Below, piece after piece: positions 5,884 through 64,000 of a stretch of DNA of 64,000 bases. The notes beneath the pieces were generated by a model, which was not told the DNA's origin, did no database searches, and saw only the letters and a program-made list of their open reading frames with translations. The DNA lies in sequence record PV467749.1; one strand, written 5' to 3'. The translations under genes and the position numbers were made by a program. Source of the DNA: a phage. Numbering within the stretch: position 1 is the first letter of the stretch; every line of letters starts with the position of its first letter.

Positions 5884-6158
5884 TATTCAACCTTATCATA
5901 AACAAGTTTGTGTGTGCTTAGTACTTTGTTGAGATGTCCAGGGCATTCATATACATACAATCTCTCCTGACGTTTTTCCCAACCACCACAGATACGACCT
6001 GATTGTGTACATACCTCATACTCGTTAATAAAAGACTTACCTGTGAATGTACAATCCTGACGAACTAAGTCTTTTGCACTAAACCTGCCGTCATCATTAC
6101 ATGCTGTAAGAAACATTGTACAGAATACAAAGACAACTGTCAATAGTTTTTTAATCAT
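5883..6158 (-). CDS. putative lipoprotein
   Basis: Signal peptide ending in lipobox-like LTAC. Confidence 0.5.
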   Translation of the reverse strand: MIKKLLTVVFVFCTMFLTACNDDGRFSAKDLVRQDCTFTGKSFINEYEVCTQSGRICGGWEKRQERLYVYECPGHLNKVLSTHKLVYDKVE

Positions 6159-6523
6159 TGAACATCACCCCAACGGAAACCTTTCATATAATTCAAATTC
6201 ACCTCAACGAGTTCATGTGTTTTTGTGCACCAAATGGAGAGAGTTTTTGTAACATCACCAGGTTCAGATTCATAATTCACACAATAACCTTCAATGCGTA
6301 GAGTTTTGTTAGTCCAATGTTCCCACTCAATCCAAATTTCATTTGGATAATAAACCATATCTTCTTTGAACGTATGGAATTGATCCATTGGTAAATGACC
6401 TTTAACTTCAATTACTTCAGCACTTCGAGCCAGTTTTTCAAGCTTGTACTTTATTTCAGCAAGATATTCTTCATCATTCAGACGAGTTAATAAATCTGTT
6501 GCACGGGTTGTATCAAGGCTCAT
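6155..6523 (-). CDS. hypothetical protein
   Basis: 122-aa ORF. Confidence 0.5.
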   Translation of the reverse strand: MSLDTTRATDLLTRLNDEEYLAEIKYKLEKLARSAEVIEVKGHLPMDQFHTFKEDMVYYPNEIWIEWEHWTNKTLRIEGYCVNYESEPGDVTKTLSIWCTKTHELVEVNLNYMKGFRWGDVQ

Positions 6524-6771
6524 TGTTGTACTCCATTAATCACTGAAGTATTGATTCGTGTTTTACCGCTGCTGTATCCAGTACTGGTATTTGCATTAGG
6601 GCAATAAACTGTATACAAGGTTACACCAGCACCGTCCTTTTGCATACGATAAATCTTACATCCTGCTTCTTGTAATTCAATAGGGAGAATAAAATCACTT
6701 GTGCGTTCTTTTGTTGAAGCGTCACATGCAGTGAGTAAAAATGCAACGAGTACTGCTACGATATATTTCAT
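6520..6771 (-). CDS. putative lipoprotein
   Basis: MKYIVAVLVAFLLTAC signal peptide with lipobox. Confidence 0.5.
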   Translation of the reverse strand: MKYIVAVLVAFLLTACDASTKERTSDFILPIELQEAGCKIYRMQKDGAGVTLYTVYCPNANTSTGYSSGKTRINTSVINGVQQ

Positions 6772-7079
6772 TAACGAACCTCCACTTCTTGAGAAAGAGC
6801 ATGAGTCAGTGCATTTGAATTCGAACTATTCATTTCACGCTGACATACAAACATAATGGCATCTTGTACTGAACCTGCGATTTCATACTCACGACCTTCT
6901 GGATCAGTTACCAGATGTTCAACGATACAACCACCACGCAGTACAGAAGCACCAGTACTTACACTAATCCTGTAACCTAAAAAATCAAACTGCATACATG
7001 CGTCAGTAGGTTTCATCCAATAACCGCTGTTTTGATTCAAATCGATGATTACAAAACCTTGAGTGTTAGTTTGAAACAT
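6771..7079 (-). CDS. hypothetical protein
   Basis: 102-aa ORF. Confidence 0.5.
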   Translation of the reverse strand: MFQTNTQGFVIIDLNQNSGYWMKPTDACMQFDFLGYRISVSTGASVLRGGCIVEHLVTDPEGREYEIAGSVQDAIMFVCQREMNSSNSNALTHALSQEVEVR

Positions 7080-7172
7080 AGTTAATTCCTCATTTAATTT
7101 AAAAGGGTGGAAACGCAGTGACGAGTACGATTATGCTGTCTTTCCTTTCACTGCATTCCCTTTGATATAAAC

Positions 7173-7200
7173 ATTATACAGTACTGATATCTTATGTCAA
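7173..7200 (-). promoter_or_regulatory. sigma-70-like promoter (TTGACA-16-TATAAT)
   Basis: Minus strand reads TTGACA TAAGATATCAGTACTG TATAAT; spacer ends with palindrome CAGTACTG. Confidence 0.6.
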
Positions 7201-7296
7201 GTATTAATCACCAAAAATCATCAGATACCCAAACCAACCCACACAGACGACTAAGCTAACAATACCAAAGACAATCTCTAAAGTCATGTTGCATCC

Positions 7297-7497
7297 TTAA
7301 TCAATGATTTTATATTCACGATGACCATAGAATCCAGCCTCAAGGATGCGATTACCATCAGCATCTTCCAAATCCCACCCACGGGATGTTTCGGCAATAA
7401 TAGTCATGATGTGACCTCTTGGGAAAATTCCACTCATGGTGGATACATCTTCAAGTAATTGAACCTTCTTACCAACATTTGTATTTGATTTAAACAT
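7297..7497 (-). CDS. hypothetical protein
   Basis: 66-aa ORF. Confidence 0.4.
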   Translation of the reverse strand: MFKSNTNVGKKVQLLEDVSTMSGIFPRGHIMTIIAETSRGWDLEDADGNRILEAGFYGHREYKIID

Positions 7498-7506
7498 ACT
7501 TTACCC

Positions 7507-7689
7507 TTATTCGTTGATTACGTCAAGTACTTTGTCCAGTTTCTTACCAATACTATCCTTTGGTTTCTCACCATTCTGGAATACATTAGTACTGCAATAC
7601 TCAGGACGGGTATTAGGGAACTTCTCGTTCATCCAGGAGTGACCATATACACCAAGAATGATACCTACGATAAGAATGATGATTTGCAT
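7507..7689 (-). CDS. small membrane protein
   Basis: 60 aa with N-terminal hydrophobic helix. Confidence 0.4.
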   Translation of the reverse strand: MQIIILIVGIILGVYGHSWMNEKFPNTRPEYCSTNVFQNGEKPKDSIGKKLDKVLDVINE

Positions 7690-7703
7690 GATATATCCTC
7701 TAA

Positions 7704-8588
7704 TTAAATTACATATGGTTTATAGTAATGAATCTCGTTTGATATTGCAGCGAAGACTTTGTTATTAAATCTTTCACCATAATCACGAAGAGATTCACCT
7801 TCTTCGCTTTCAATAAAGTAATTATATACTGGTAGACGTGCGGTGTCAACACCTATAAATGATTTCATGTAAATTTGTACTAAACGATTCATTCCTTCAT
7901 TTAAGCATTGCACCTCAAAGTGCTTGATACCTTTGTCTAAATGTTTGAATGCATTAATGATACCACGTTTAAAATCACGCTGCATAGTACTGAATAGATT
8001 CTCAGGGAACACTGTAATAGGTGACATTGATTTAAGAATGTATGTATCTTTAGCATTCTTAATATACTCAATGAAGCAGTAGTTAACGTCAGGCTCGATA
8101 GAACGATCAGCGTTATGATACCAGTACTTAAACTCACTGTACTCAGCAAACTTATGCTGGCGTAATGCGTTACAATCCTCACACAGTGCAGTCATGTTCT
8201 CTTTATCATTGCCACCCTGGAGACAGTCCAGTACATTATGGTCTAACGTCATGCGTACAAGGCGTTTACCTTTAAGTACATAAGGTCTGAATTTATAACG
8301 GTCTTTAGTACTGTGCTTATGTAAAGTGAATACCACATTGGATTCACCACAACAATCACATTTAAAGCCATCGCGTGACATTACATGAATGAGTTTTCGA
8401 GTATTTGGGCCGAACTCAGATTTAGTAATGTTGCCAACAATTTCTGATGGGTCGTAGTATTTTGAATTCCGGCGAATCAATTCATCTATAGTGCTCATTT
8501 TATATTTCTCCAGCAAGACACTCAAAAGTGACTTTTTTAACTTCGATAACTCGTACCAAATAGTATCCATGAAAGAAATTAAAACCAA
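7704..8588 (-). CDS. HNH endonuclease (probable homing endonuclease)
   Basis: Cys cluster CDCCGESN and LDHNVLDCLQGGNDKENMTALCEDCN, HNH-type motif; true start may be internal Met. Confidence 0.6.
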   Translation of the reverse strand: MVLISFMDTIWYELSKLKKSLLSVLLEKYKMSTIDELIRRNSKYYDPSEIVGNITKSEFGPNTRKLIHVMSRDGFKCDCCGESNVVFTLHKHSTKDRYKFRPYVLKGKRLVRMTLDHNVLDCLQGGNDKENMTALCEDCNALRQHKFAEYSEFKYWYHNADRSIEPDVNYCFIEYIKNAKDTYILKSMSPITVFPENLFSTMQRDFKRGIINAFKHLDKGIKHFEVQCLNEGMNRLVQIYMKSFIGVDTARLPVYNYFIESEEGESLRDYGERFNNKVFAAISNEIHYYKPYVI

Positions 8589-8727
8589 TCATTTGTGATA
8601 ATGCATCTGCTTCAGATTTTGCACGGATACATGATAGATATAGTTCTCGTATATCGCCATCCAACGATGCTTGTTTCTCGTCATTGATAACAATAGAACG
8701 AATCTCAAAACGAACACCATAACTCAT
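8500..8727 (-). CDS. hypothetical protein
   Basis: 75-aa ORF overlapping HNH gene 5' end. Confidence 0.3.
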   Translation of the reverse strand: MSYGVRFEIRSIVINDEKQASLDGDIRELYLSCIRAKSEADALSQMIGFNFFHGYYLVRVIEVKKVTFECLAGEI

Positions 8728-24161: not shown

Positions 24162-24368
24162 TTATAAGCCATGTCTTTTCAAAAATCTAGCAAACACATT
24201 TTTGGAAGCACCATAACTTTCATATATACTAACTTTTTTCTCACCATTATTCAAACGTTTTTTGATATCTTCTATGTTATCTTCTAAACGTTTTACGTTT
24301 GCAAATTTCTTAGATGGTATATTATTTTTGGTTCTATAATTCAGTACTGAACCTGAACTAATATTCAT
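24162..24368 (-). CDS. small putative DNA-binding protein
   Basis: 68 aa; C-terminal KVSIYESYGASKNVFARFLKR resembles homing-endonuclease-associated HTH (NUMOD-like), unverified. Confidence 0.35.
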   Translation of the reverse strand: MNISSGSVLNYRTKNNIPSKKFANVKRLEDNIEDIKKRLNNGEKKVSIYESYGASKNVFARFLKRHGL

Positions 24369-24389
24369 TATTTTATTTCAAAGTTTGTG

Positions 24390-24694
24390 AGCCATCTGTG
24401 AGTCGAACACAGTACCTAACGATTCGTATAATCTATAGTTTTCACTATAGTACGGACTATATCATCATCCCATAGGGATGCCGGACGCTAATGATGTATT
24501 ACACAGTAAGATCGTACTGTACCATCTAGTCTCTGCACCTTCCCAATACGCTTATTGGGCTTGGCTCAGGATTGTCATCACCATTACGTGTTAAGATTTC
24601 CCTGAATTCATCCAGTTTTTCAATCACCATTACTGATGAAAGTCACCATTGTCGATGAGTCGTTTGCTCTAACCACCGTGAGCTAATGGCCCGA
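24390..24694 (-). tRNA. tRNA-Met/Ile (anticodon CAT) interrupted by group I intron
   Basis: 5' exon 24657..24694 (GGGCCAT TA GCTC..GAGC A AACGA CTCAT) and 3' exon 24390..24426 (AA TCGTT AGGTA CTGTG-TTCGACT-CACAG ATGGCTC A) join into a 75-nt cloverleaf. Confidence 0.7.
24427..24656 (-). other. group I intron (IC3-like) in tRNA anticodon loop
   Basis: Insertion after anticodon U36, last intron nt G; contains GAAGGTGCAGAGACTAGATGGTAC, near-identical to the P7/J8-7 core of known tRNA group I introns as I recall it. Confidence 0.65.
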
Positions 24695-26649: not shown

Positions 26650-26750
<101 letters not shown>

Positions 26751-26754
26751 ATTT

Positions 26755-26870
<116 letters not shown>

Positions 26871-57437: not shown

Positions 57438-59861
57438 TCATCCTCCTAAATTGCTGTTTTGTAATGAAATCAAAAATGTATCATGAACGTAGTTTTCGAA
57501 TTCATGTGCAAAGAATCCAAACTCAACTCCTGTGATTTCAAACTCAACACCAACCATCTTACCATGTTCATTGTTCTGAAGTAAAGTGTTAAAGAATGCT
57601 TCACCCTTTCCTGGTGCACAATATGCAACTGGAATGATTGGCATAAATTTCTTTTCAACTCCATTTTCTTCGTATGGGTGATTCATGAAGCGAGGAACAG
57701 TGTCAAGCATCTCATCAGAAATTCCTGGTATAGCATCTACATACAAACCACGGTTTTGTAAATCAGTTGGGTCTTTCACAAGGTTAGTTGTGTCTTCGCC
57801 AATTGCTGCAAAAATATTTTGACGCAAGCCAAATATTTCACCGAGTGTTCCGTTATCAATTTGCGTGTAACTTCTTGGATTCTTAGAAACCGACACCAAT
57901 GAACCTGCGGGTAAAACTTCACGGTATAATATATCATACTGCAAGTTACCTTGGTTGTCAAGTGCTGACATTACTTTATAGTTGCCCATTACCATTCTAA
58001 ATTTTCCATCAGGTATAGTTGCACCAGATTGGTTTATGATATTTTCCCTAAGTACTTTTTTAATATCACTCAACGTAGTGTAAGTATAGTTCTGACTCAA
58101 AAAGTTTTCTTTTAATAGAATACGTGGTACTTTTTGTAACCCGTATCTATCATCTGATTGACGATGGAAAGCTTGTTTTGTAAATGATGGTGTACTAATA
58201 CACTTAAACCATTCACGTTCAAAATAAACAGAAGGTACAATATGTGCACTTAAGTAGTTTTGTCCAAAACCACGTACAATTTTCAGTTTAAATAACTTGG
58301 ACGCAACACCACCTTCAGTGTCATATGCTTTGATGTTGAATTCTAATTTTATATCATCATTTGCACTGAAATCTAAACTTTTTGCATATGCCGTCCCGAC
58401 CAAGAACCCATCTGCGGTGAGGTCCAAACCATATTTGCGAATATCATCAGGCCCACCATCTAATACATAAGATACCTGATTAGTACTGGTAGTTTGTATT
58501 TGTGGATAAGTACTGTGACCGAAATATTCACCCACATGAATACTACCTAAATCACTATCAGTTGTGAAGTCTATTGAGTTTCCTTCTTCTGCGTTCACTA
58601 GAACACGGAACATCTTCTCTTCACCTATAATATTCTCACCTAAGCTTGAATCATAATATCCTAAATCAATCCAATCTGAACTTTTAAACACTGGCTTTGT
58701 TTCACCTAGATCATATTCACCAGAGATTACATATGGATATACAACGTTATCTTTCAACTGATACAAATGATTAGGTAAAGGTTTATCACCATCAGCGTAT
58801 ATACCATCTACATTGTCTGGACATACCCACATTTGATATGCTTTGAAACGTTGGTTTATAGCGAAGCGGTCAGTGTCATAACTATATGTACTCAAAATAT
58901 CAACAATTTCAACTTTGAAATATGCATCACATGCATCAGAGTCATATAGGAATGTTTGCAGAAATTGTCCATTTGGGTTGAAAACCAATCCTGAATCTAG
59001 TAACTCCCCAGAGCTAGTTTGAATATTAACCTTAATTTCTTTATTAATACCAAATACAGGCCATATATTATCAATAGGACGTAGGATTGCATAATCATCA
59101 GTAATGTGGCGAGCAGGAACTTCTGCTGGGGTCATATCGAGTAGACGATACGCTGGATAAAATACTCTAGGAGATAGGTCAGTTGATGTATCCGTTCCTA
59201 AAATAAATGGACGACGACGACCAAATCCCTGTACAAATAAAGTACTGTTGGAACCGTATTCAATATCACCAATACAATATAATTTGTCATCATCACCGAT
59301 TTCGATTCCAGGAGTAACCCACACTTCCTGACTATCATATTCAATTGTTACTTCATTTGAACCAATTTCACCACTAGGGGAAATGTTACCATAGTACATA
59401 ACATTTACTGCTTGAAGATAGAAGTTAATCTGTTCAGAGTTGTTAAATGTACCATCATCTTTACAATGCAATTTAATAAAATAAACATCTTCGGTATTAG
59501 TGCTTGCCGATAGATCAAATTGAGTTTTATCAATTTTACATTTGTGCTTACCATTAATCAACTTGTTACCAGTAATACCTGATGATATAGGTGTGAGATT
59601 AGATTCATCATTACCAACATACACTGCGTAGTGATCTTCTGGTTGAAATACTGCATCAGAACTATCCAAACCCTGAATAGTTAGAATCATCTCTAAGTAT
59701 TCGTTTTCATTAAGTATATAACTATCATCCGTTGTGGTTTCTTTGTTGATACTCAAACGCACAAGAATGTCTTGTCCTTCTTGTATATATCGAGCATCGG
59801 CTTTTATATCCCATCTAGGGGTAAAAGTTGTCATTATAATTCTCCATAGCCAAGCTACCAT
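57438..59861 (-). CDS. large hypothetical protein (possibly virion structural)
   Basis: 807-aa ORF; no ATPase or nuclease motifs seen; likely start at Met10. Confidence 0.55.
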   Translation of the reverse strand: MVAWLWRIIMTTFTPRWDIKADARYIQEGQDILVRLSINKETTTDDSYILNENEYLEMILTIQGLDSSDAVFQPEDHYAVYVGNDESNLTPISSGITGNKLINGKHKCKIDKTQFDLSASTNTEDVYFIKLHCKDDGTFNNSEQINFYLQAVNVMYYGNISPSGEIGSNEVTIEYDSQEVWVTPGIEIGDDDKLYCIGDIEYGSNSTLFVQGFGRRRPFILGTDTSTDLSPRVFYPAYRLLDMTPAEVPARHITDDYAILRPIDNIWPVFGINKEIKVNIQTSSGELLDSGLVFNPNGQFLQTFLYDSDACDAYFKVEIVDILSTYSYDTDRFAINQRFKAYQMWVCPDNVDGIYADGDKPLPNHLYQLKDNVVYPYVISGEYDLGETKPVFKSSDWIDLGYYDSSLGENIIGEEKMFRVLVNAEEGNSIDFTTDSDLGSIHVGEYFGHSTYPQIQTTSTNQVSYVLDGGPDDIRKYGLDLTADGFLVGTAYAKSLDFSANDDIKLEFNIKAYDTEGGVASKLFKLKIVRGFGQNYLSAHIVPSVYFEREWFKCISTPSFTKQAFHRQSDDRYGLQKVPRILLKENFLSQNYTYTTLSDIKKVLRENIINQSGATIPDGKFRMVMGNYKVMSALDNQGNLQYDILYREVLPAGSLVSVSKNPRSYTQIDNGTLGEIFGLRQNIFAAIGEDTTNLVKDPTDLQNRGLYVDAIPGISDEMLDTVPRFMNHPYEENGVEKKFMPIIPVAYCAPGKGEAFFNTLLQNNEHGKMVGVEFEITGVEFGFFAHEFENYVHDTFLISLQNSNLGG

Positions 59862-59874
59862 TATCTATAGATTA

Positions 59875-59912
59875 TTTATATAAAGGACAAGGAAGACCCA
59901 TAAAGGTCTTCC
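59875..59912 (-). terminator. rho-independent terminator
   Basis: Hairpin GGAAGACC-TTTATG-GGTCTTCC then T-rich tract after gp52 stop. Confidence 0.5.
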
Positions 59913-59922
59913 CTGTTTATAA

Positions 59923-61335
59923 TCAATCTTCAGTTTTTGGCGTGAAGTCAATCTTACGTAGTTCTTTCAACTCATCTTTATAGATGTTCCAAATCAAATC
60001 ATGATTCGACAGGAGATTGTTATATTCATCCATTAAATCCAAGTTATGTTGAATATCAGCTAGTACTGATTGATAATTGTCTTGGGTCCAACGATATGAT
60101 GGGAAGTTTACGATGCTTTGAATATTCTCATCGGTTGCTTCGATTTCAGTGTTTAATGATTTAACAAACTCAACCATTTCTGAACGGTTAGCAAAACCCT
60201 TAACCTTAGCAATCATATCATTATCAAAACATTCTTTGATTAGAATCTTATAACGTACTTCAGCAGCACAATCATCAAGTTTCTTCTCATAGCGTTTCAC
60301 ATAGTATTTGAAACGGAATTCAACAAAGTCCTTAATCAAATCCATTGTGTTATCATAGACTTTAACCTTACCATTCTCACCTAGAACAGTTAGGATTTGT
60401 GTCATCTTCTTATGAATGCCAAAGTATTCAATTACATCTTTCTCCACCCATTTAGCAGATGTTCCGCGTGGCAATTTGATTGTAATATCAATAACATCAG
60501 TACTATCATTATCATAATCACGAATATCACCATCATCGCTCATCTTAATGAGTTTCTCGATGAATTTCTCAATACTGTAGTTAGGTGGTAGACCTGTTAC
60601 TTTAACAGTACTGGCATCAATTACTTGTGCTTTACCATAGAACTCATATTTGTTTTCATCAAGCTTAGTTACGATATCACTTGCACCACATGAAACATAG
60701 TATGGAGTCATTTCTTTTAATGGTTTTTTATCAATAGCACGAATACAGTTATCAATAACATCTTCAATCTTATGTGGTAGAATTGTACTCTTATAACCTA
60801 CTGACATACTATCGTTACCAAACAAAGATAGTGGGATAATAGGTAAAAAGAAACTTGGTTCCATTGTAGTACCATCATAGTTCTCTTTCATTGGAATAAT
60901 GTCAGAGTCACGCAGTACTAACATTTCAGTACTTTTATTCTTTTTAACATAAGTATAACGAGCAGAAGCTGGAGTACTGTTTACTTGTGTACCAAAACCA
61001 CCACGTTTACCAATGAGTGGGTAGTTGTTTACGACTGGTGATGCTAGGTTCTGAAGAGTACCAGATGCAGATGCATCACCGTGTAGATAGATACCATCAC
61101 TAATCATTTTACCAGCACATGATACAGTTTTGATTTCACCACTAACTTTTGAGAGGGTGAAGATTGCTTTACGCTGTGAACTCTTAAGGCCATCAATCCC
61201 AGGGATTGCACGGTCTAGTGTGTACATTGAATATTCTAGTGATGTGGTATTCACATAATCAGAACTGTTATAATCTAGTAGAGTTAGTGTTTGGTTATCG
61301 ATGCTTTGATTTTCGGTTTTTTTACTTTTAGCCAT
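59923..61335 (-). CDS. 52: DNA topoisomerase II medium subunit (T4 gp52-like)
   Basis: YSMYTLDRAIPGIDGLKSSQRK matches T4 gp52 AYAMYTVENRAIPNMIDGFKPVQR; KVKVYDNTMDLIKDFVEFR matches KLQVYDNVVDLIKDFVEVR. Confidence 0.85.
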   Translation of the reverse strand: MAKSKKTENQSIDNQTLTLLDYNSSDYVNTTSLEYSMYTLDRAIPGIDGLKSSQRKAIFTLSKVSGEIKTVSCAGKMISDGIYLHGDASASGTLQNLASPVVNNYPLIGKRGGFGTQVNSTPASARYTYVKKNKSTEMLVLRDSDIIPMKENYDGTTMEPSFFLPIIPLSLFGNDSMSVGYKSTILPHKIEDVIDNCIRAIDKKPLKEMTPYYVSCGASDIVTKLDENKYEFYGKAQVIDASTVKVTGLPPNYSIEKFIEKLIKMSDDGDIRDYDNDSTDVIDITIKLPRGTSAKWVEKDVIEYFGIHKKMTQILTVLGENGKVKVYDNTMDLIKDFVEFRFKYYVKRYEKKLDDCAAEVRYKILIKECFDNDMIAKVKGFANRSEMVEFVKSLNTEIEATDENIQSIVNFPSYRWTQDNYQSVLADIQHNLDLMDEYNNLLSNHDLIWNIYKDELKELRKIDFTPKTED

Positions 61336-61385
61336 TCCATTGTCTCTTTGTAAAAGGGGAACACCATGTTCCCCATTAATCTATA

Positions 61386-63350
61386 TTATTCCATCCAGTT
61401 CTTACGATCATCAGCACGTTTCTTGTTGAAAATCAAATCAAGAGTTTCACCAAGGCGACCATCATCTGTAATCGCTACTGCAACACTGTTAGTGAATGCA
61501 TCACGGAAGTTTGCTTTTTCTAACGTACCCAATCCTTTCGCACGGGTTGCTTTCCAACCTTTCCAATCATCTGGGTTGTATTCATGTACATCATGACCAT
61601 AGTAGTACTTGGATTCCTTACCTTTCTCTAGAATGATGAATGGTGTTTTGAATATATACACAAATGGATTCTCTGGGTCTTGGAATAGTTCAGGCCAGAA
61701 TTTGTATAGGAAGTTACATACTAAAGCACCAATGTTCTTTCCATCCTCATCTTCATCGGCACAGATATAAAGCTTACCATAGTTAAGGTCTGCTCTTTCC
61801 GCTTTTACACCAGGAATCAGGTTGATACTCGCCATTATATCATGCAATGCCATTGAATCCATTAATTCTTTGGTTTTCTCATTACCACTGACGTTCATAA
61901 TTTTACCACGCAATGGTAGAATACCATGAACTTTAGGATCACGAGCACTCGCCATGTTGGAAATAGCAGAATCACCCTCAGCAATTAGTAGGATGCATTT
62001 GGAACGATCCGTGCCTGTACTGTCCAGTAGTTTTGCAACTTTACCTTTCAGTAGTTTTTTAGCTAGACGGCGATCTTCTTCTGCATCTTTCTTGTTGGTA
62101 CGAGCAGCACAGCGTTCAAAAATTTCATCAATCCACTCTTTGTTCTTCTTGACTAATTCATCGAACCATTCAGAATTCATCGCTTGTTGAATTGGACGAA
62201 TAACGTTTTCGTTGGTTAGTTTTGATTTAATCTGTGAGTTGAATGATGGTGCTTTCATCGTTGTTACGTTATAAATCAACAGACCTTCTTCAATATCAGA
62301 GCGGTTAGGTTTCATCTTGCGTTTCTTTGATTCTTTCTCTAGAGCAGTTCCTACTCCTAATGAGAAGAATTTCTTGAATGTATCAAGATGTGTACCACCA
62401 TCAAATGCTGGGGCATTGTTAACCAAACCATGCATATGGAAGTTAGTGTTCATACCCGATACTGCATTAGGAACAATGTAGAAAGTACTGTTAAAGTTGA
62501 ATGATTCATCTTTAACGTTCAATTGCATCAGTTTAGATGCGTTGAATAGTGCTTTTTCAGTAGTTCCTTTAATTGCAATACGCTTACCGTTAAGGAAAAT
62601 CTTATAGGTAGGGTTAGCAGCAGACATTTCTTTCAAAATACTGTATAACAATTCGGTTGGCAGTTTACGGTTAGGAAATACCTCAGAACTCAGAGTGAAG
62701 CGAATTGTTGTTCCAGTCTTATCTGCTTGAACCTTACGAATAGTTGGTTCATGTACATGAAGTTCAGGAAACATAATAGTTCCTTCTTCGAACTTCTGAT
62801 TGAACTTATAAAAACCGTCATATCCGTCATTGCTACTTTGTGTTTTATACGGGCGACCTTGGCGATGGATTTCAAGTTCAGCTTTAGAACTTACAATCAT
62901 TGCAACTGAACCACCCAATCCATTCTGACCGATTGTTTCATCACGCTTCGAGTCATCAAAGTTGCGACCAGTTTTAGTTTCAGTCATTACCATTGTACAT
63001 AGATTTTTCTGATACTCAGGAACATAGTCAATTGGAATACCACGACCATTATCACTGATCTCAAAGGATAACTCTTCTTCATTGAAATCAACTTTGAGTA
63101 CTGGTTCTTTTGTGCCAGCTTTTTTAAATTCATCTAAGCTGTTATCGATAATTTCACGAGTAGCAGTTAGAATTGCAGGAACCCACTCAACGTTTTTAAC
63201 TTCATATCCAGACTCACCAAAGATCAGTACTTGACTTTCGTGAACAGAACGTGAACCCAGATACATCTCAGTACGTAAGCGAGCATGTTGATAATCGTTT
63301 AGACGTTGTACATCATGTTCCTGAAGAACAGCACTTTCTTTCTTAGCCAT
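61386..63350 (-). CDS. 39: DNA topoisomerase II large subunit (T4 gp39-like, with gp60-like C-terminal region)
   Basis: ATPase motifs EIIDNSLDE, DNGRGIP; toprim LLIAEGDSA; C-terminal DEDEDG...PELF...KGLGTLEK...DDRKNWM resembles T4 gp60. Confidence 0.85.
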   Translation of the reverse strand: MAKKESAVLQEHDVQRLNDYQHARLRTEMYLGSRSVHESQVLIFGESGYEVKNVEWVPAILTATREIIDNSLDEFKKAGTKEPVLKVDFNEEELSFEISDNGRGIPIDYVPEYQKNLCTMVMTETKTGRNFDDSKRDETIGQNGLGGSVAMIVSSKAELEIHRQGRPYKTQSSNDGYDGFYKFNQKFEEGTIMFPELHVHEPTIRKVQADKTGTTIRFTLSSEVFPNRKLPTELLYSILKEMSAANPTYKIFLNGKRIAIKGTTEKALFNASKLMQLNVKDESFNFNSTFYIVPNAVSGMNTNFHMHGLVNNAPAFDGGTHLDTFKKFFSLGVGTALEKESKKRKMKPNRSDIEEGLLIYNVTTMKAPSFNSQIKSKLTNENVIRPIQQAMNSEWFDELVKKNKEWIDEIFERCAARTNKKDAEEDRRLAKKLLKGKVAKLLDSTGTDRSKCILLIAEGDSAISNMASARDPKVHGILPLRGKIMNVSGNEKTKELMDSMALHDIMASINLIPGVKAERADLNYGKLYICADEDEDGKNIGALVCNFLYKFWPELFQDPENPFVYIFKTPFIILEKGKESKYYYGHDVHEYNPDDWKGWKATRAKGLGTLEKANFRDAFTNSVAVAITDDGRLGETLDLIFNKKRADDRKNWME

Positions 63351-63412
63351 TTGAATTCCTTTTTAATGTCTCTTTGTCATGCAACATTGTATCATCAATG
63401 CTTTGTTTGTCT

Positions 63413-63443
63413 CAAAAAAATATCGGGACATTAAATGCCCCGA
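63413..63443 (-). terminator. rho-independent terminator
   Basis: Hairpin TCGGGGCAT-TTA-ATGTCCCGA followed by T7 run on minus strand. Confidence 0.55.
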
Positions 63444-63449
63444 CAATTA

Positions 63450-63998
63450 TTATTTTACCAGAAGTAATTGTAATTCAGCACTAGGACTAAATTCATCATC
63501 ACTCCAGTACTTGTGAACCTTCTCTGGACTAGCCTTAGCCAATACTTCACCACCACCTACAATGTAGACTTGGTGTGAACCAATCAATCGGGTCCAGAAT
63601 TTAATTGCATCATCTGTGTGAAGACTGTCACTTAGTACTTTAATACCATGAGAAACCATATCCATAAAGATATTATAGATGATACCTTTAGTACCAGTTT
63701 TAGAGGCCGTAGCAGAAATCTCAAACACTTGTGGTACACCAACCACTGCATCATTCGACAAATGTCCACTAACGATAGCAAGCTGTTTACCCGCTTTATC
63801 ATAGGCAATAAACCCAGTACCATTCTTATTCATAAACACATCATAATCTTTGTGTTCTGCGAACTTAACCATGTTGTGCTTACCTGTCATCTCGGCAGTT
63901 TTGTCAACGAACTCGTCACGGTCTTGGCCTTGGAAACTATCGAAACGTTGTGGCATTTCTTCCAATTTCTCTTTATGGTCTTCTTCACATGAATCCAT
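63450..63998 (-). CDS. hypothetical protein (possibly 5'-truncated by window edge)
   Basis: 182-aa ORF reaching the window end. Confidence 0.45.
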   Translation of the reverse strand: MDSCEEDHKEKLEEMPQRFDSFQGQDRDEFVDKTAEMTGKHNMVKFAEHKDYDVFMNKNGTGFIAYDKAGKQLAIVSGHLSNDAVVGVPQVFEISATASKTGTKGIIYNIFMDMVSHGIKVLSDSLHTDDAIKFWTRLIGSHQVYIVGGGEVLAKASPEKVHKYWSDDEFSPSAELQLLLVK

Positions 63999-64000
63999 TA

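Follow-up and report, generated by a model that had tools for sequence, protein, structure and literature searches.

In bacteriophage T4 the large subunit of the type IIA topoisomerase is divided between genes 39 and 60, and gene 60 is interrupted by a 50-nt coding gap. The locus described here encodes a homologous protein of another phage in one uninterrupted gene. It lies on the minus strand of a 64,000-nt stretch of phage DNA (PV467749.1), referred to below as the window. The open reading frame (ORF) is very probably the intact large (ATPase and Toprim) subunit of a two-subunit phage type IIA topoisomerase, belonging to a lineage that was never invaded by the MobA/bypass cassette.

The ORF begins with ATG and comprises 654 codons with zero in-frame stops, and the following features were assigned to it.

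61386..63350, minus strand: topoisomerase II large subunit CDS (GyrB/ParE/gp39-type, contiguous), from the 654-codon ORF and its Pfam and PDB matches
62907..63155, minus strand: GHKL ATPase motifs, namely the N-box EIIDNSLDE (aa 66-74), the G1 box DNGRGIP (aa 100-106) and the ATP lid GQNGLGGS (aa 141-148), from motif positions and the phmmer alignment to 6rks_B
62217..62237, minus strand: transducer QTK loop SQIKSKL (Q373, K375), aligned to E. coli GyrB SQTKDKL
61965..61979, minus strand: Toprim EGDSA motif (E458), equivalent to GyrB E424; the split-intein site in relatives, intein-free here
61737..61757, minus strand: Toprim DxDxDG (D532-G537) followed by K538, with the DNA reading TGTGCCGATGAAGATGAGGATGGAAAGAAC..., equivalent to GyrB D498/500/502

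Four Pfam domains, each above its gathering score, are arranged as is canonical for a type IIA B-type subunit: HATPase_c (aa 62-172; 36.6 bits against a cutoff of 26.4), the DNA_gyraseB transducer (aa 305-427; E 4.5e-17), Toprim (aa 454-549) and TOPRIM_C (aa 567-654; 32.2 bits against a cutoff of 29). The full-length E. coli GyrB chain 6rks_B, aligned by phmmer, supplied the residue equivalences. They place the catalytic base at E66 (GyrB E42), the Mg2+ ligand at N70 (N46), the adenine-binding aspartate at D100 (D73), the ATP lid at G141-G146 (G114-G119), the QTK loop at Q373 and K375 (Q335 and K337, the lysine being the one that contacts the ATP gamma-phosphate), the Toprim glutamate at E458 (E424), and the DxDxD aspartates at D532, D534 and D536 (D498, D500 and D502). 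The GHKL, transducer and Toprim hallmarks of a type IIA B-type subunit are all present in the 654-aa protein, with the Toprim domain in one chain. Judged by its sequence, the ORF is a real, ordinary, functional gene.

In solved structures, the large subunit finds its best match in T6 gp39 (8ylu_C; 1.4e-46), followed by E. coli GyrB (8e-44) and human TOP2A (2.5e-39) (phmmer). Because the protein is about as close to GyrB and TOP2A as it is to T6 gp39, the description "gp39+gp60-like" would therefore denote no more than an ordinary B-type subunit of a type IIA topoisomerase. The gp39 of T2, T6 and RB14 (in RB14 "gp60plus39"; structure 8ylu) shares with it the contiguous GHKL-transducer-Toprim-TOPRIM_C order and a short gp52-type partner without a wrapping domain, but it is only about 29% identical and has 605 residues against 654; the jumbo-phage protein, longer by roughly 50 residues, carries inserted stretches in its ATPase/transducer region, among them aa ~167-200. 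Residues ~155-301 are left unaligned to T6 gp39 by phmmer, yet they align to GyrB in one stretch. Bacterial GyrB and ParE and the N-terminal half of eukaryotic Topo II have the same domains, the same catalytic residues and a contiguous Toprim. E. coli GyrB differs in its insertion of about 170 aa in the Toprim, which is missing here, the alignment ending at GyrB 548, whereas eukaryotic Topo II differs in that the large subunit of the phage is unfused to an A-type module.

The affinities of the phage itself are with E. coli jumbo phages of 350-385 kb. By megablast, positions 59900-64000 are 99.0-99.7% identical to EC.P1, fEgEco12, BF17 and four others, and about 86.5% identical to PBECO4 (genus Asteriusvirus) and its relatives. 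The large-subunit gene is 99.6% identical in DNA to fEgEco12 g418, and the protein shows 97%, 84% and 72% amino-acid identity to the large subunits of PBECO4 (YP_009150767.1), RaK2 and GAP32. The PBECO4/121Q-type (Asteriusvirus) and RaK2/GAP32-type phages have a large subunit of equal length, the same medium-subunit neighbour and the same flanking structural genes, with no substantive difference. Both ORFs are annotated in fEgEco12 and PBECO4, as "topoisomerase II large subunit" and "topoisomerase II medium subunit"; a protein-database cluster at 100% identity, named DNA topoisomerase 2, comprises 54 sequences; and many jumbo-phage contigs carry orthologs at 47-100% identity under the large-subunit name. 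The text of the RaK2 genome paper says nothing on topoisomerase, introns or tRNA-Met. On these sequence relationships the phage is a PBECO4/RaK2-like E. coli jumbo phage and not T4-like, and its protein is distant from those of T4 (25-32% identity).

The relation to the divided T4 gene was followed by BLASTP against T4 gp39 and a bypass-spliced gp60, both built from NC_000866. Residues 11-517 align with gp39 3-473 (25% identity, E 1.7e-22), and residues 520-653 with gp60 29-158 (32% identity, E 8.4e-17). The first-pass annotation had described a 654-aa protein with gp39-like ATPase and toprim motifs and a gp60-like C-terminus of about 140 residues, and the alignments bear this out, the gp60-like part amounting to 134 residues. 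The two T4 proteins are thus homologous to the phage protein and collinear with it, and they meet at codons 517-520.

61791..61802, minus strand: codons 517-520 (A-E-R-A), the equivalent of the T4 gene 39/gene 60 split (MobA insertion site), from BLASTP ends and alignment; uninterrupted

In the multiple alignment, gp39 homology ends at "...LVLGEKA", which corresponds to ...IPGVKA (A517) in the 654-aa protein, and gp60 homology restarts at "...MNYANVAIMTDADHDG", which corresponds to ...LNYGKLYICADEDEDG. The alignment runs unbroken across this junction in RB14 "gp60plus39", RaK2, GAP32 and the 654-aa protein, as does the alignment with T6 gp39, and the junction is gapless save for two residues against RB14 and one against E. 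coli GyrB. The first-pass annotation had suggested a comparison with fused homologs in "other T4-like phages"; the collinearity held with RB14 and T6, while the implied membership of this phage among them did not. Residues 474-516 of T4 gp39 and 1-28 of gp60 have no counterpart in the 654-aa protein by either BLASTP or multiple alignment.

The second T4 peculiarity, the coding gap, sits between gp60 Gly46 and Leu47. The equivalent point here is G537 (GGA)/K538 (AAG), at 61742..61737, where the DNA is continuous (...GAT GGA AAG AAC ATT GGT...) and the encoded KNIG aligns with the post-gap part of gp60. The take-off-equivalent glycine codon is GGA in both phages, which is probably coincidental. 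Sequence inspection of this point of the large-subunit gene found no coding gap, stop codon or hairpin. The gene differs from T4 genes 39 and 60 in the elements of the split: it is a single uninterrupted ORF without element-derived extensions (the C-terminal tail of about 43 aa and the N-terminal tail of about 28-46 aa), and mobA and 60.1 ORFs are absent. The earlier statement that neither split nor bypass element exists agrees with continuous DNA at both T4-equivalent points.

The published account of the T4 arrangement gives these observations their context. The ancestral large-subunit gene of T4 was split by a MobA homing-endonuclease element of about 1.1 kb carrying the bypass cassette, and the split is flanked by element-derived C- and N-terminal extensions, which are gp39 474-516 and gp60 1-28; homologs of the gene 60 bypass were found in 28 genomic cases in NCBI NR and were set against "parental" uninterrupted genes (bioRxiv 10.1101/2022.08.31.505936). 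The Topo II of T2 and T6 has two subunits, and T4 is the only case of a type IIA topoisomerase with three (cryo-EM 2024, PMC11461880). T4 39-mobA-60 DNA is matched by 528 phage records, just 42 of which cover at least 80% of it, and the remainder of these T4-close records have a contiguous 1,818-bp gene, in some annotated "60plus39". With the GAP32 ortholog as tblastn query, 1,856 of the 1,953 phage records holding a homolog (~95%) match at least 80% of the query's length in a single place. The undivided gene is plesiomorphic and much the commonest state, and in T4 the split and bypass are derived, having come with insertion of the MobA cassette. The proposal that the unsplit form may be ancestral is accordingly supported by the published account, yet what it describes is the textbook, default state. 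The unsplit arrangement and its evolutionary meaning are already known, the gene is already annotated in identical genomes, and the gene arrangement itself offers no novel reading.

A contiguous gene could also be a derived one, if a MobA-type or intein-type element had once split it and the break had since been healed. Such re-fusion has precedent in a clade of Aeromonas phages, whose "hit and run" genes were re-fused (bioRxiv 10.1101/2022.08.31.505936), and relatives of the same lineage with a split intein in Toprim indicate that mobile elements do visit this gene. The known re-fused genes, however, keep insertions homologous to the C- and N-terminal extensions (bioRxiv 10.1101/2022.08.31.505936), whereas the junction here is gapless apart from the one or two residues mentioned. 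Remnants of the MobA element were also sought by BLASTP with the gp39 C-terminal and gp60 N-terminal tails, which returned chance-level matches elsewhere in the protein and none near aa 517-520. The EGDSA site is canonical, although precise loss of an intein would be traceless anyway, and a copy never invaded and a perfectly precise ancient excision would leave the same contiguous gene. Secondary re-fusion is considered very improbable. In the preferred reading, the MobA/bypass cassette that gave rise to T4 genes 39 and 60 never entered the copy of this lineage, which is why the gene is contiguous.

Relatives of the large-subunit gene show other architectures. Three metagenomic proteins of about 620 aa (P0081, P0085 and P0087) share 61-66% identity with the first 70-78% of the query; their similarity breaks off exactly at EGD|SA, where a stretch of about 160 aa beginning "C-L-x-E..." takes over. 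On contig L003 the next gene opens with a 46-aa segment ending in "...GIISHN", after which come "SAISNL..." and the remainder of Toprim and TOPRIM_C, this downstream part being 61% identical to residues 456-653 of the 654-aa protein. Such a break is the signature of a naturally split intein, and the large subunit would be rebuilt by trans-splicing. Three further metagenomic proteins of 1134-1143 aa (P0058, of 1143 aa, P0065 and P0075) have the large and medium subunits fused into a eukaryote-like chain, at 51-54% identity. The allele of the present phage is the plain two-gene form.

The partner subunit is encoded immediately downstream of the large-subunit gene.

59923..61335, minus strand: topoisomerase II medium subunit CDS (GyrA/ParC/gp52-type), 470 aa, from PF00521 and the T4/T6 gp52 PDB match

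Its sole Pfam domain is DNA_topoisoIV (PF00521; 2.5e-64 over aa 42-457), and its top PDB match is T4/T6 gp52 (8ylu_A; 2.9e-37), with eukaryotic Topo II next. The catalytic R126-Y127 aligns with the S-R-Y of gp52, and an HGD motif lies at aa 85-87. Pfam gave no DNA_gyraseA_C match, and the GyrA C-terminal wrapping domain is absent, the chain ending with the coiled-coil/C-gate region. A contiguous large subunit that ends in TOPRIM_C, together with a short medium subunit lacking a wrapping domain, is the two-subunit organisation of the T-even type.

Some GenBank records label the pair "gyrB"/"gyrA" or "DNA gyrase subunit B/A", and E. coli GyrB nearly equals T6 gp39 as a PDB match of the large subunit, so that a true DNA gyrase with negative supercoiling activity has to be weighed. 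The 470-aa medium subunit, however, has neither the GyrA C-terminal beta-pinwheel nor the GyrA box required for wrapping and supercoiling; the C-terminus of the large subunit matches TOPRIM_C, which is of the eukaryotic/T4 type; and among the A-subunit matches T4/T6 gp52 leads, ahead of eukaryotic Topo II. A gyrase is thus a very unlikely identity for this enzyme, slightly more so than a healed gene is for its history. Since the medium subunit is without a GyrA-type wrapping domain and the closest structures are those of T6/T4 Topo II, with eukaryotic Topo II second in the case of the medium subunit, the expected activity would be ATP-dependent relaxation and decatenation, as for Topo IV and for the Topo II of T4/T6 and of eukaryotes, and not negative supercoiling.

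Topoisomerase mutants of T4 show only a DNA-delay phenotype and are not lethal. A decaying or non-functional copy whose task is left to host gyrase and Topo IV is nevertheless the least credible of the alternatives and can be given hardly any weight, as all catalytic residues of the large subunit are intact and its gene is kept together with its partner across the clade. Comparison with the PBECO4 orthologs adds to this: because dN/dS is 0.024 for the large and 0.044 for the medium subunit at a dS of about 0.9, both genes are, by this measure, under strong purifying selection.

By analogy with the family mechanism and the T6/T4 cryo-EM structures, the intact two-subunit topoisomerase would be an A2B2 enzyme of two 654-aa large and two 470-aa medium subunits. 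It would bind the G-segment and cleave it through the medium subunit's Tyr127, while the large-subunit Toprim residues E458 and D532/D534/D536 would hold Mg2+. Passage of the T-segment through the break would be driven by ATP, bound and hydrolysed at the dimerised GHKL domains (E66, N70, D100, the lid G141-G146 and K375). The enzyme presumably serves the replication of a genome of about 350-380 kb.

The surroundings of the gene pair contain several short elements.

63421..63445, minus strand: terminator-like hairpin and T-run at the end of the upstream gene, from a sequence scan
63386..63415, minus strand: sigma-70-like promoter TTGAGA-18-(TG)TACAAT upstream of the large-subunit gene, by consensus match only (10/12 plus an extended -10 TG)
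63367..63377, minus strand: 11-mer ACAAAGAGACA, copy 1, 17 nt upstream of the large-subunit ATG, exact match
61341..61351, minus strand: 11-mer ACAAAGAGACA, copy 2, 6 nt upstream of the medium-subunit ATG, exact match
59887..59916, minus strand: terminator-like hairpin of 13 pairs directly after the medium-subunit stop codon, from a sequence scan

The terminator-like hairpins bracket the gene pair (63445..63421 and 59916..59887), and the first of them stands between the topoisomerase genes and the preceding structural gene. TTGAGA-18-(TG)TACAAT is the top-scoring site of the promoter scan, in a region where the total number of sites is not above chance, and is offered as a candidate promoter and a lead only.

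Copy 2 of the 11-mer follows just after a GGGGAACA-TGG-TGTTCCCC hairpin (61356-61374) and TTTT. The two copies are the only exact ones in the 64 kb, and none of 100 shuffles reached two. ACAAAGAGACA is conserved in PBECO4, and in L003, a relative with 65% protein identity, it occurs as GACAAAGAAAC before both topoisomerase genes amid otherwise unrelated intergenic sequence. A general phage promoter or ribosome-binding motif was considered and rejected: a degenerate pattern with one mismatch gave 8 matches against 3.3 expected, a number reached by 1 of 100 shuffles, and the motif is not widespread. Among the matches in the 64 kb only the two topoisomerase copies stand out. The sequence GACAAAGA(G/A)AC might be a dedicated operator at which a phage regulator or a processing enzyme acts on RNA or DNA, so as to balance subunit stoichiometry, although this idea is speculative and rather unlikely to be correct.

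A separate observation concerns the tRNA cluster of the window, in which Rfam detected a group I intron (RF00028; 24433-24747, minus strand; 99 bits against a gathering score of 50) and ARAGORN, with introns allowed, reported a tRNA at 24692..24387 with a 230-nt insert in the anticodon loop.

24388-24692, minus strand: interrupted tRNA(CAU) gene, from comparison with intronless relatives
24692..24655, minus strand: tRNA(CAU) exon 1
24654..24425, minus strand: tRNA(CAU) group I intron, 230 nt
24424..24388, minus strand: tRNA(CAU) exon 2

The insert is absent from the tRNA locus of A4, PBECO4 and SD-1_S14; the uninterrupted gene is annotated as tRNA-Met in A4 and SD-1_S14, the A4 copy lying between tRNA-Ser and tRNA-Asn. 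The comparison fixes the splice junctions as ...AACGACTCAT | CGACAATGG...ATTATACG | AATCGTT.... A U closes the 5' exon and a G closes the intron, matching the requirement for group I splicing, and GGUGA repeats near the 5' end of the intron can pair with UCAU as a putative P1. The tRNA-Arg(ACG) called by ARAGORN was rejected, since the CAU register alone yields the intronless tRNA-Met of A4 and obeys the rule of U before the 5' splice site and G at the intron end. At least 80% of the interrupted allele is present in only 7 phage records. A 68-aa ORF beside the intron-bearing tRNA gave nothing significant in Pfam. In an incomplete literature collection, group I introns in phage tRNA genes were nowhere described, and for jumbo-phage tRNA genes only an irrelevant mimivirus paper turned up.

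The tRNA intron, the shared 11-mer and the split-intein and fused relatives are of greater interest than the contiguity of the topoisomerase gene. The gene adds one normal, unsplit type IIA large subunit and bears out the annotation that GenBank already gives for this jumbo-phage group. As an outgroup it has some modest use, the T4 split and bypass appearing against it as a lineage-specific mobile-element scar, and within its own clade it supplies the unbroken allele with which the split-intein forms and the fusions of large and medium subunit can be compared.

The window is from an Escherichia coli jumbo phage. In three proteins of metagenomic relatives (P0058, P0065 and P0075, 1134-1143 aa), the large and medium topoisomerase subunits form one chain, which is likewise the arrangement of eukaryotic Topo II. 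These fused proteins, in which PF00521 is also present, are 51-54% identical to the large subunit of the window. In further uncultured relatives, namely L003, a contig with diverged topoisomerase genes, as well as P0081, P0083, P0087 and P0088, the large subunit is interrupted at the Toprim motif, EGD|SA. The locus in L003 is the following:

L003 (ENA ERZ27285371 k141_1553) 6001-8698, plus strand: split large-subunit locus

The final ~160 aa of the N-fragment begin with 'CLEE...', and the gene after it opens with a 46-aa C-intein ending in '...SHN', which is followed by 'SAISNL...' and the remaining Toprim. The interruption in these relatives looks like a naturally split intein. A gene that is broken in the annotation is also found in Escherichia phage CMSTMSU, which matches the 4.1-kb topoisomerase region of the window:

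MH494197.1 232687-236769: CMSTMSU, a 98.6%-identical genome

There, the annotation divides the region into several short pieces, among them 'DNA gyrase subunit B' and 'topoisomerase IV subunit B', the others being six hypothetical proteins. The matching stretch falls 18 nt short of the window query. Indel errors or frameshifts in the assembly are the likely cause, not a real gene split.

Both topoisomerase genes of the window are preceded by the same 11-mer, ACAAAGAGACA:

63367-63377, minus strand: copy 1, 17 nt upstream of the large-subunit ATG
61341-61351, minus strand: copy 2, 6 nt upstream of the medium-subunit ATG

These are its only copies in the whole window, and two copies were reached in none of 100 shuffles. 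The 11-mer is kept in PBECO4, a related phage, and a variant, GACAAAGAAAC, precedes both genes in the diverged L003; it may be a regulatory element common to the two subunit genes. The pair itself lies between two genes whose products are labelled virion structural proteins in the fEgEco12 and PBECO4 records. It is unusual for replication genes to be interleaved with structural ones in this way, and the Pfam search found no domains in either flanking ORF:

57438-59861, minus strand: downstream flanking gene, 807-aa ORF
63450-63998, minus strand: upstream flanking gene, structural protein

Elsewhere in the window, a tRNA(CAU) gene is interrupted by a group I intron, as found with Rfam (RF00028, 99 bits), the intron mode of ARAGORN and comparison with relatives:

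24388-24692, minus strand: intron-bearing tRNA(CAU) gene
24692..24655, minus strand: exon 1
24654..24425, minus strand: group I intron, 230 nt
24424..24388, minus strand: exon 2

The intron is inserted directly 3' of the anticodon, with U as the last nucleotide of the 5' exon and G as that of the intron. Unlike the window, the related phages A4, PBECO4 and SD-1_S14 have no insert at this locus, and the uninterrupted gene is labelled tRNA-Met in the annotations of A4 and SD-1_S14. Only seven phage records match the interrupted allele over 80% or more of its length, and we found no published account of a phage tRNA gene carrying a group I intron. The default run of ARAGORN did not detect the gene, and the intron-mode call, Arg(ACG), is a miscall. 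A borderline tRNA match adjoins tRNA-Ser(tga) (26755-26844) and was not called by ARAGORN:

26672-26750, minus strand: tRNA match, Rfam only, 29.3 bits against a gathering score of 29

Next to the interrupted gene, the ~234 nt separating it from tRNA-Asn are occupied by a short ORF, for which Pfam gave no significant match:

24162-24368, minus strand: 68-aa ORF

Since just 7 nt separate these tRNA genes in A4, this region represents an additional insertion adjoining the intron, and the ORF is possibly the remnant of a mobility gene.
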